Part shown: one piece after another, positions 33,001 to 36,000 of the stretch
Numbering within the stretch: position 1 is the first letter of the stretch
Layout of the letters: each line of letters opens with the position of its first letter
IMG/VR virus record: IMGVR_UViG_2718218139_000008
Length of the DNA: 63,885 bases
Strand: one strand, 5' to 3'
Source: a virus
Lineage: Duplodnaviria; Heunggongvirae; Uroviricota; Caudoviricetes
Position numbers: made by a program

Positions 33001-36000
33001 TCCTCGCTGATACGCAATTGCAACAATTAAACGGTAATGATTACCTTTTATGTTGAATACCACGCGCCGGTTTTTCAATATACTGGCCGTTCGGTATTGT
33101 GCCTTAATGTCTGCCGGGCTTTTCCAGTCAGCTTTTGCTGCCTCATCCACCCATGCCCTTAGCGGTTGTTCTGCATCAGGATTCTCCGCCCAAAAATCCC
33201 TGAGTGTTTTAACTGAGATGATCTTCATAACTGTATGTTAGTCCCGTTTTGGGACTAATTCAACCGTCCTTAACTACAAATTTAATGATAAAAATATTGA
33301 CCAGTTAAATTTTAATTTGTAGATTGTATCCATCAACCCACCCCGCCCCACAGAACGCAGGGCAATACCTAGAGTTACCCGGCAGTGGTCAGGGGTTAAG
33401 TAGCCAGCCCGAGGCGTATGAACATGACGGCGGGAACACTTTGTATAACAGCGCAGCAGGTTTCAGTTCCGCTACCCCGGCGTTAAGGGGAAATGAGGTC
33501 AACATGTATACGCTCAATCTTGGCAACAACGAATCTCTGGTATGCGGTGTGTTTCCCAACCAGGACGGTACCTTCACCGCGATGACGTATACCAGAAGCA
33601 AAACGTTTAAAACTGAAGCTGGCGCGCGTCGCTGGTTAGCAAGAAACTCTGACTGATGAGGTTGACGATGGAATTTAAAGATTTACCTCCTTCAATCCAG
33701 GAGATTGCAGCACACACACTTCGTCATCGTCTGAACGAACTTGCATTGGAATCGGTAACGAAAAAAGACACTGATAATATGGCTCGTAATGTGTGCGATG
33801 CGTTTACCGGATTGTATTTCTGTGCGTCTGTAAATAAACACGACTCAGAGAGTGTGGCAAATAAAATTGCAGAAACGACAGCGCAAAACATCAATACGAA
33901 ACCAACGGAAGAAGAAATTGATCAGTTTGCTCATGATGCTGGTTTAAAAAACAAGAAAGAAAAATCGCCATATGCGGGGAACATGTTTGTTTATGACAAT
34001 CTCATCAGAATTCGTGGCGAAATTCCGGCGGAATACCTGGCAAGAGTCCATCAGGCATTGCTTAAAAATCTGGAAACAGAATTATTTGATGGCAACACTA
34101 ACGGTTTCTTCATGGTATCAGGCCTTGAGAAAGACTGGGATGCAGAAAAACGCTGGAATGTTGCTACATGGTTATTCAGTAACAGAGCCGCTGCCCTGGA
34201 AGCTTCGGCATGTATTTGCGGCCTGTTCTTAACAGACCACAAATATAATCTGGATGTGTACAGTTATATTTACGCTGAACACGGTCCGCTCTGGATTGAC
34301 TGGTAATTATAAGGAAACACCAGCAGGGCCGCGGCGACCAACAGAACGATTAAAATCAATAATGCCATTATAAAGGACATTATTTAATTTATCGTCGAAT
34401 GCAGATTCTGTGAGCCTCAACTCTGAATGAGTTTTTAATAACCCTGATTGCCTGAGTTGATTTACCAGGCATTCAATCTGTTTTTCAATAAGCGGATTTC
34501 TTTTTTTGTTTGGCATTTTATCCTCCATTGAGGTTCTGGGTTAAAAATGGAGACCAACACGCTGTCACGTGTGGTCGTGCGCCGGACACGGATAAGAATC
34601 CGGCAACACCAGTTTACCACTGGTTAATTTTCCCTGAAAAGTCAGGGCATAACACGAAAGCGTACGGCGAAGTTCGTCTCTCTGTACTTTGTCGTTACAT
34701 TTAATTCGATCGTGCGCTTCCGGTTGTGGCAATCCGCGAAATGGCGCGGCGGTAAGTATGGCGGGGTTATTCCTTCCCCTTGAGGACACCGGGCTGTCAG
34801 GCTGACCATACGCTTAAGTGACAGCCCCGCCACAATATCCATGTGTTGTCTTTGGTGGCATCAGTTCGACTCCGTGACTGCTCTGCCGCCCTTTTTAAAG
34901 TGAATTTTGTGATGCGGTGAATGCGGCTAAGCGCACGCGGAACAGTTAAAACCGTAAAGGGGTCTTTTACGGGGCGTAACGGGCATACTTCTGTATTCCG
35001 GCGTTAATTGTTAACTGGTTAACGTCACCTGGAGGCACCAGGCACTGCATCACAAAATTCATTGTTGAGGACGCGATAATGGAAACGTTATTACAGAACG
35101 TTAATACGTCTGAAGGGTGTTTTGATATTGGTGTTCTGCTCAGTAACCGGGAGTTTACTGAAGATGCCATTAAAATGCGGAAATATGAACCTTATCTTCT
35201 CAATGATAATTCCATACTTTCCAGAATTGCCCTTATTGAACTTGGCATTTTCGGAGAGCGGAAATGACATCAGCGTTTGCACTGGTGATGACGGTTTTCC
35301 TTATAACGGGGGAGCCACAGAATGTGATTACCGGAATTTATTCCAGTAAAGAATCCTGCCATCAGGCAAGAGACGAGCAAAAACTTTCCGGTGAATGTTT
35401 CCCGTTAAAAAAAGTATCGCTGTACCTGAATAACGAAATACCGGCTGGATAACCCGCCAGCCATATTAACGCCATACCAGTTAATTAAACATGCCAGCAA
35501 TGGCAGGGATTCGTTCACCCTGAAATCTGTAATGAGGTTAAAACACAATGAGTAAAGTCTTTATTTGTGCCGCCATTCCTGACGAACAGGCAATAAAAGA
35601 CGAGGGTGCTGTTGCTGTGGCCACGGCCATTGAAGCCGGTGATGAACGTCGCGCCCGCGCAAAATTTCACTGGCAATTCCTGGAACATTATCCGGCTGCT
35701 CAGGACTGCGCTTATAAATTTATTGTCTGCGAGGATAAACCCGGTATATCCCGCCCTGCCCTCGATTCCTGGGATGCTGAATATATGCAGGAAAACCGCT
35801 GGGATGAGGAGTCTGCTTCCTTTGTCCCGGTTGAGACTGAATCATATCCGATGAACGTCACTTTTGACAAGCTGGCCCCTGAAGTACAGAACGCTGTCAT
35901 GGTTAAGTTCGACACATGTGAAAACATCACCGTTGATATGGTGATTAGCGCACAGGAATTGTTACAGGAAGACATGGCAACATTCGACGGACATATCGTT

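Follow-up and report, generated by a model that had tools for sequence, protein, structure and literature searches.

A probable seed-less DicF variant in the dicBF-type operon of a defective lambdoid Escherichia coli prophage located at the Qin site

In Escherichia coli, a prophage operon blocks cell division by means of DicF, a small RNA (sRNA), and the proteins DicB and YdfD. The viral record IMGVR_UViG_2718218139_000008, a stretch of 63,885 nucleotides (nt) that was analyzed over its full length and is referred to below as the window, was found to carry a locus of this kind. On balance, this locus is probably an early-left (PL-like) operon of the dicBF type, carried by a defective lambdoid prophage that occupies the Qin site of E. 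coli, adjoining ydfJ; the DicF of this operon (34840-34896, plus strand) would be a natural variant without a seed, probably made as a long ribonuclease (RNase) III form and no longer capable of xylR control or of yielding the 53-nt RNA. Homology, synteny, allele structure, and allele distribution were observed directly in the sequences compared. Apart from its DicF allele, the operon is an ordinary instance of a thoroughly studied system. We did not find a description of this allele, here called type B, in a literature whose comparisons covered only copies with more than 99% identity (PMC5069750) or scored presence/absence.

The setting of the operon was derived from a comparison with the Qin prophage of E. 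coli K-12. Positions 1-1284 of the window (minus strand) are occupied by ydfJ, the same gene that borders Qin on its left side in K-12, which indicated that the first prophage of the window is a larger relative of Qin, ridden with insertion sequences (IS), in the same insertion site. Alignment showed a block colinear with K-12 Qin, with identities of up to 95-100% in conserved segments and of 33-55% in variable ones; since the block is both syntenic with and alignable to Qin, the identity of the locus is beyond chance. Because of the ydfJ edge, the immunity genes upstream, and the exonuclease, excisionase, and integrase genes downstream, the operon was assigned to the early-left, PL type, in the same orientation as K-12 dicBF (ydfABC-dicF-dicB-ydfDE). 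Order and orientation of repressor gene, ydfA, leader, DicF hairpin, dicB, ydfD, ydfE, and int are the same in both prophages, with 95% identity in the leader core and 100% identity over the 80 nt preceding the dicB start codon; in both, the dicB-ydfD overlap is ATGA. The window differs from K-12 Qin in carrying genes of families phrog_2151 and phrog_4274 (the latter antisense) instead of ydfB/ydfC, a HigBA module after the repressor gene, another promoter/operator sequence, a DicF without its 5′ 12 nt and RNase E site, a DicB and a YdfD with 62 and 47% identity to their K-12 counterparts, and an intact exonuclease gene that is a pseudogene in K-12. A region of 5.5 kb around the locus showed 100% identity in several GenBank assemblies (e.g., GCA_003015325.1), and the best RefSeq complete E. 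coli genome reached only 90-92% identity over 34300-35600.

A first-pass annotation of the window, made from the sequence alone, had pointed to a match to the DicF 3′ stem-loop and terminator. The sequence that it quoted is indeed present (GGTGGCATCAG from 34854; CTCCGTGACTGCTCTGCCGCCCTTTTT ending at 34896), and a match to Rfam family RF00039 at 34840-34891, completed by a T-run at 34892-34896, exceeded the gathering score (51.3 versus 48 bits; E = 2.7e-08 for the whole window). This was the sole DicF match in the 63.9-kb window. The predicted hairpin (arms 34854-34860 and 34884-34890; −17.5 kcal/mol) comprises 7 + 5 pairs, is preceded by a U-rich stretch and followed by UUUUU, and encloses the anti-Shine-Dalgarno (anti-SD) sequence ACUCCG (34869-34874). 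Hairpin and tail (34852-34896) share 41 of 45 nt with K-12 (91%). Substitutions in the retained 41 nt are C18U and U21C in the stem, where pairing is preserved (C-G became U.G in the window and U-A in sub-allele B2; U.G became C-G), and U29C and U30G in the loop. Across 12 alleles, 97.9% of the hairpin cells were paired. The loop and bulge bases ACUCCGUGACUGCUCU are shared by the window, K-12, and the E. coli type-B loci recovered by BLAST, a set free of the pattern by which the IMG/VR sample had been chosen; since that pattern fixed the loop sequence, loop conservation within the IMG/VR set is partly circular.

Similarity to K-12 DicF ended at UUUGG (34851) and covered the 3′ 41 nt only. The ungapped Rfam alignment spans model positions 1-52, yet only 2 of the first 11 positions match. 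Identity to K-12 along the plus strand was 95.2% in the leader core (34707-34830) and 36% in the DicF 5′ zone (34831-34851), followed by the 91% of hairpin and tail, 96% in the first part of the dicF-dicB spacer (34897-34952), 33% in its variable part (34953-34998), and 100% in the last 80 nt before dicB (34999-35078). Where K-12 reads CAAU|UUUCUGGUGACG, made up of the RNase E context and the 12 nt at the start of mature DicF, the window reads CCAUGUGUUGUC and is a net 14-15 nt shorter. The seed UUUCUGGUGACG, through which xylR is controlled and on which pykA regulation depends, was absent from the window DicF in every alignment (Rfam and two alignments with different gap placement), and the segment that the window lacks includes the RNase E context CAAU|UUUC of the K-12 53-nt form. 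At the sequence level, a plain equation of this allele with that of K-12 is contradicted. Alignment to K-12 dicF, proposed in the first-pass annotation as a test of its own claim, confined the match to the terminator hairpin plus UUUGG. That restriction does not make the element a mere terminator, because ftsZ pairing maps to the 3′ region of DicF (PMC5069750), of which CUCCG and the 3′ arm are retained. The processed RNA of 50-60 nt that had also been expected is not to be assumed, because the 5′ seed and the RNase E site are missing; the allele is not equivalent to K-12 DicF.

K-12 DicF uses its 3′ region to pair with the ribosome-binding site (RBS) of ftsZ and its 5′ end to pair with xylR (Balasubramanian et al., 2016, PMC5069750). 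In mutant DicF3, whose predicted ftsZ pairing is intact, ftsZ repression and filamentation were kept, repression of xylR and pykA was lost, and growth was far less inhibited; toxicity of DicF was traced largely to unidentified 5′-end targets (PMC5069750). This K-12 laboratory mutant is the best available functional analogy to the window allele, with which it shares the loss of the 5′ pairing function and the retention of the ftsZ-pairing 3′ region. However, DicF3 is a plasmid-expressed substitution mutant of normal length, whereas in the window allele the whole 5′ zone is replaced and shortened and hairpin and loop carry four substitutions. Co-folding with xylR recovered the published interaction for K-12 DicF, at −15.3 kcal/mol via nt 6-17 (z = −4.2), and yielded −4.8 or −0.8 kcal/mol (z > 0) for the window allele. 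For ftsZ, the predicted geometry of the core duplex was the same as in K-12 (CUCCG with the SD sequence, GCUCUGCCGCC upstream), with no difference from K-12 in the anti-SD ACUCCG or in the 3′ arm. By analogy with DicF3, the type-B RNA may still repress ftsZ; the absence of the seed suggests that 5′-end targets, including xylR, should be lost.

DicF of K-12 originates from one long dicBp transcript without an internal promoter, from which RNase III generates a 190-nt and RNase E a 53-nt species (Ragunathan et al., PMC10448788). The non-coding leader core of the window (34707-34830, plus strand) contains two hairpins, at 34711-34752 and 34791-34827. The former differs from K-12 in one loop base and corresponds to the RNase III site for the 190-nt 5′ end, as calculated from the annotated K-12 dicF coordinates. 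In the latter, a consensus fold of 89 distinct alleles revealed one compensatory pair (UA 76, CG 5, UG 6). A long RNase III product of approximately 175 nt is probably still made from the type-B operon, and the canonical 53-nt species should be lost in type B. Long-range pairing of the DicF 3′ half with the upstream GGCGG…GGCGGGG, which appeared in the minimum-free-energy fold of the full precursor for both alleles, was rejected: the 89-allele consensus prefers the local terminator hairpin and the z value is weak (−1.6). Two minus-strand open reading frames (ORFs) that were called mechanically over the leader (34565-34789 and 34642-34842) lack an annotated counterpart in K-12 or other genomes and were treated as non-genes.

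Derivation from inside a longer mRNA and an end at an intrinsic terminator are features shared with Hfq-dependent sRNAs that are processed by RNase E from 3′ untranslated regions or from within operons (CpxQ, SdhX, and SroC; reviewed in PMC9438474). Members of those families usually show their highest conservation in the seed, whereas in DicF the seed zone is the least conserved part between the two allele classes.

In the mechanism proposed here, transcription, processing, repression, and all target effects are predicted. Transcription would start at a repressor-controlled promoter upstream of ydfA and proceed through ydfA, a gene for a 212-amino acid (aa) protein, and the structured leader to the DicF hairpin, which would act as an intrinsic terminator; in type B this hairpin is very probably still an intra-operon terminator. 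Expression of dicB, of the ydfD-like gene, and of the exonuclease gene would then rest on read-through transcripts. Type-B DicF has an Hfq-type module (U-rich stretch, GC-rich hairpin, and U-tail) and would retain, in its 3′ sequence, complementarity to the ftsZ RBS, but has neither the 5′ seed nor the RNase E site of K-12 DicF. Its expected products include an RNase III-dependent species of approximately 175 nt but not the 53-nt species. Repression of ftsZ would be possible, if somewhat weaker, xylR and other 5′-end targets would be deregulated, and type B would in effect represent a natural counterpart of DicF3.

The 65-nt junction sequence of type B occurred in 201 of 5,426 complete E. coli genomes (approximately 4%), and 5 of the 120 IMG/VR viral contigs with a DicF core were of type B. 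At least six prophage contexts were represented, with varying neighbors and immunity genes (RelBE, ydfC, a Rha insertion with a dicB fragment, a LexA-family repressor, and RacR). Two sub-alleles were distinguished: B1, found in the window and, as an identical allele, in E. coli SCU-171 (NZ_CP054363.1, near 356.9 kb), has GCCGCC and a U.G pair, and B2, found in APEC O18 and others, has GCCACC and a U-A pair. Among 24 distinct alleles, no intermediates between types A and B were found in the 5′ zone. Sequence comparison indicated that type B is a lineage rather than a one-off decay product. A scan of genome contigs for the DicF core returned seven loci, all of type A, and is uninformative on the occurrence of type B across species.

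The spacer between dicF and dicB contains an extra hairpin of 21 nt, CCGTAAAGGGGTCTTTTACGG (34952-34972, plus strand; also recorded for loci L010-L012, L021, L023, L028, L046, and L115), which is not found in K-12, replaces part of the K-12 spacer, and is terminator-like on the minus strand. Of 16 type-B loci, 12 showed this hairpin in linkage with type-B DicF, and recombinants in both directions were encountered; L115, for example, combines a type-A 5′ half with a type-B2 3′ arm, which results in a C.A stem mismatch, and a type-B spacer. This usual linkage, with recombinants in both directions, indicated cassette-like recombination. The same spacer (34889-35111, plus strand) gave a sub-threshold match to Rfam STnc100 (30.6 bits; gathering score 47), as did that of K-12 (locus L001, 4433-4642; 34.4 bits). 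The match is centered on a hairpin, CACCUGGAGGCACCAGGCAC (35026-35045), that resembles the CACCGGGAGGCACCCGGCAC hairpin of true, late-region STnc100 copies, as if early-left and late leaders had an RNA element in common.

[quoted passage not shown] As in these strains, dicF and dicB occur in varied lambdoid contexts of pathogenic E. coli, and the window is itself of EHEC/enteropathogenic E. coli (EPEC) type (AgvB, nleG7). However, the published EHEC comparison took only dicF copies with more than 99% identity to K-12 (PMC5069750, legend to Figure 9), a limit by which type B was excluded by design. Because type B is present in ST95 strains, a possible name for the RNA was sought in sRNA-17 of E. 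coli K1, reported as novel and assigned to an mEp460-type prophage (PMC7719688); its sequence had no match in the window or in type-B loci and it is unrelated.

A number of observations weigh against the favored reading of type B. With 51.3 bits, the window (B1) allele was the lowest Rfam scorer of those compared (K-12, 76.7 bits; B2, 61-62 bits), and covariation in the hairpin was not significant, its one double change being equalled by 152 of 500 shuffles. The loop substitution UU to CG at 34867-34868 removes two predicted pairs with ftsZ. It also allows C34 and G35 of the 57-nt allele model (the CG of CUCCG, 34873-34874) to pair within the loop, with an unpaired probability of approximately 0.1, and opening of the anti-SD costs 1.64 kcal/mol in the window versus 0.17 kcal/mol. 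Net co-fold energy with ftsZ was weakened by 4-6 kcal/mol, from −16.3 kcal/mol for K-12 to −12.1 or −10.3 kcal/mol for the window, a measure that is non-specific even for K-12 (z = −1.2); because it fails to separate real from shuffled sRNAs, no quantitative claim is made on the strength of ftsZ repression. Type-B alleles have 4 polymorphic sites in approximately 22 nt of 5′ zone versus 2 in the 46 nt of hairpin and tail. Type B was absent from 50,697 INPHARED phage records, in which all copies were of type A, and the truncation of the integrase gene indicates that the prophage is decaying.

These points could be accommodated if the trans-acting role had been lost altogether and the hairpin served only as an attenuator and processing element within the operon, keeping down read-through into dicB, ydfD, and the exonuclease gene, its likeness to DicF being inherited rather than functional. 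Loss of the seed and the RNase E site, an Rfam score barely over the threshold, a partly sequestered anti-SD with a weaker ftsZ co-fold, a relatively polymorphic 5′ zone, and a defective prophage would all fit such a terminator. We nevertheless regard it as unlikely: the loop and bulge bases, for which a pure terminator has no need, are conserved, DicF3 shows that ftsZ can be repressed without the 5′ end (PMC5069750), and K-12 also has a long RNase III form with the same 3′ module (PMC10448788). A different reading of the replaced 5′ zone (…CCAUGUGUUGUC UUUGG) would make it a new seed, through which other mRNAs are regulated besides or instead of ftsZ. Confinement of the divergence to the seed zone, between flanks of 91-96% identity, and the existence of two discrete allele classes, without intermediates, in several prophage backgrounds are compatible with such retargeting, which is quite improbable in view of the 5′ zone being the most polymorphic part among type-B alleles, unlike a working seed. 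This polymorphism looks like relaxed constraint. That the allele might be a functional equal of K-12 DicF, including the processed form of 50-60 nt, is hardly credible; although the Rfam alignment extends over the full length of the model and synteny is the same, the first model positions mostly fail to match, no alignment recovers the seed, and xylR pairing is lost in silico.

Beyond the favored reading of a dicBF-type operon with a seed-less DicF, it can be proposed, as a tentative and rather doubtful extension, that type B is a naturally “disarmed” or retargeted allele under selection, which would have kept control of ftsZ and of the dicB terminator, shed the 5′-seed regulon (xylR, pykA, and the main toxicity targets), and be made mainly as the long RNase III product. 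If so, DicF would be a prophage sRNA with independently evolving pairing modules, whose seed is swapped as a cassette by recombination. Type B offers a natural experiment on which DicF functions are selected in prophages, on the activity of the long RNase III form, and on seed turnover in horizontally transferred sRNAs, and surveys based on presence/absence or on more than 99% identity merge or miss two DicF alleles that probably differ in function.

Downstream of DicF, an intact dicB, which the first-pass annotation had put at about 180 bp, was recovered at 35079-35267 (plus strand; 62 aa), its start lying 183 nt beyond the DicF T-run. The encoded protein scored above the curated cut-offs of Pfam PF05358 (1.3e-34; 118.1 bits, cut-off 27) and NCBIfam NF049927 (107 bits, cut-off 100). 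Its divergence from K-12 DicB is mostly in the C-terminal half, and DNA identity amounts to 46% in the 3′ third of the gene. DicB blocks septation by binding to MinC, and also blocks ManYZ-dependent phage entry; family membership suggests the same function here. A second gene for a protein of 62 aa, previously noted as a small membrane gene, follows at 35264-35452 (plus strand), overlapping dicB by ATGA at 35264-35267. It is ydfD-like, with matches to DUF1482 (PF07358; 2.6e-16; 59.7 bits, cut-off 25) and phrog_1092 (5.7e-33), and the N-terminus of its product is hydrophobic (Kyte-Doolittle mean 2.04 for residues 1-15). Over-expression of YdfD leads to lysis through inhibition of IspG (PMC8835842). 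In some type-B prophages (L020 and L022, E. coli AR_0067 and WCHEC4533; L012), a Rha-family regulator gene lies between DicF and dicB, with a short 5′ fragment of dicB upstream of the Rha gene and a complete dicB downstream.

Upstream, the operon was less remodeled than had been claimed. Replacement of ydfABC by other genes holds for ydfB and ydfC; ydfA is retained as a 50-aa homologue at 33504-33656 (plus strand; Pfam DUF1391, 7.3e-29; phrog_751, 2e-34) that aligns with K-12 ydfA. Since both ydfA and the leader core are kept, the remodeling is narrower than stated. In place of ydfB and ydfC stands the 212-aa gene (33668-34306, plus strand), which matched phrog_2151 over residues 5-216 of the ORF (3.1e-145) and is annotated with 212 aa in identical public contigs; Pfam and NCBIfam profile searches gave no match for it. 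It is followed by a 69-aa antisense phage gene (34307-34516, minus strand; phrog_4274, 1.4e-51), for which a promoter-like site was seen at 34544-34515 on the minus strand.

The immunity region lies further upstream. A DicA-like (CI-type) repressor gene (32119-32517, plus strand; Pfam HTH_3, 6.5e-09) is divergent from a Cro/DicC-like helix-turn-helix gene (31727-32056, minus strand; Pfam YdaS_toxin, 3.9e-08, and HTH_3), after which YdaT-like and DnaC/IstB-like replication genes follow on the minus strand. Against the NCBIfam DicA subfamily the repressor scored 50.1 bits, under the cut-off of 101 bits, and it was therefore classified as a relative of DicA rather than an equivalog. The repressor gene is separated from the operon's promoter region by an inserted HigB/HigA toxin-antitoxin module (32564-33228, minus strand; HigB_toxin, 2.9e-33, at 32926-33228; HTH_3 antitoxin-like gene at 32564-32923); in other type-B loci (L010), the corresponding position is taken by RelBE.

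A candidate promoter of the PL/dicBp type, TTGACC-17-TAGATT (33297-33325, plus strand), is flanked by inverted TACAAATTTAA half-sites at 33274-33285 and 33311-33322, in a region unlike K-12 dicBp. A further half-site occurs at 32033, in the intergenic region of the repressor and cro-like genes. With at most one mismatch, three of the four TACAAATTTAA matches in the 64-kb window fall in the two regulatory regions, the total count being equalled by 6 of 100 shuffles of the window; an operator role is a candidate one. The idea that the locus is toxic and tightly repressed is consistent with the DicA-like/Cro-like pair (31727-32517) and the operator-like TACAAATTTAA sites around the candidate promoter.

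Downstream of the ydfD-like gene, an intact ydfE-type exonuclease gene of 823 aa (35548-38019, plus strand) matched a Pfam Rv2179c-like 3′-5′ exoribonuclease domain (1.6e-60), YdfE_N, YdfE_C, and the phrog_2082 exonuclease; K-12 ydfE is an annotated pseudogene, disrupted by IS2. An excisionase gene (38090-38341, plus strand; DUF1233, 1.6e-31) is followed by an integrase gene cut to 145 aa (38361-38798, plus strand; Arm-DNA-bind_2, 5.8e-25), of which the Arm-binding domain and the start of the SAM-like domain remain. It is broken by an IS66-family element (integrase remnant and element together, 38361-41186) with TnpA, TnpB, and a 512-aa transposase (39648-41186), and the prophage has probably lost its ability to excise.

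The first prophage, which extends to approximately 38800, carries tail-fiber genes and the type III effector gene nleG7 near its left end. Two sets of lambdoid late-region elements were found (22057-22311, 49084-49274, 23084-23333, 49354-49600, 26741-26915, and 56161-56336), each with an STnc100 RNA (146 and 138 bits), a tRNA cluster, and hok/sok, which indicated that the window holds two tandem prophages or remnants. In one of these sets, STnc100 is directly adjoined by the EHEC-type anti-GcvB sRNA AgvB (96.5 bits), on the other strand. The window also contains seven ORFs that are each exactly 272 aa long (6198-7016, 11249-12067, 17184-18002, 41540-42358, 45378-46196, 59183-60001, and 62729-63547); the one that was examined has rve and HTH_21 integrase-core domains, as in IS3-family OrfB. 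For 64 kb, the IS load is unusually high.

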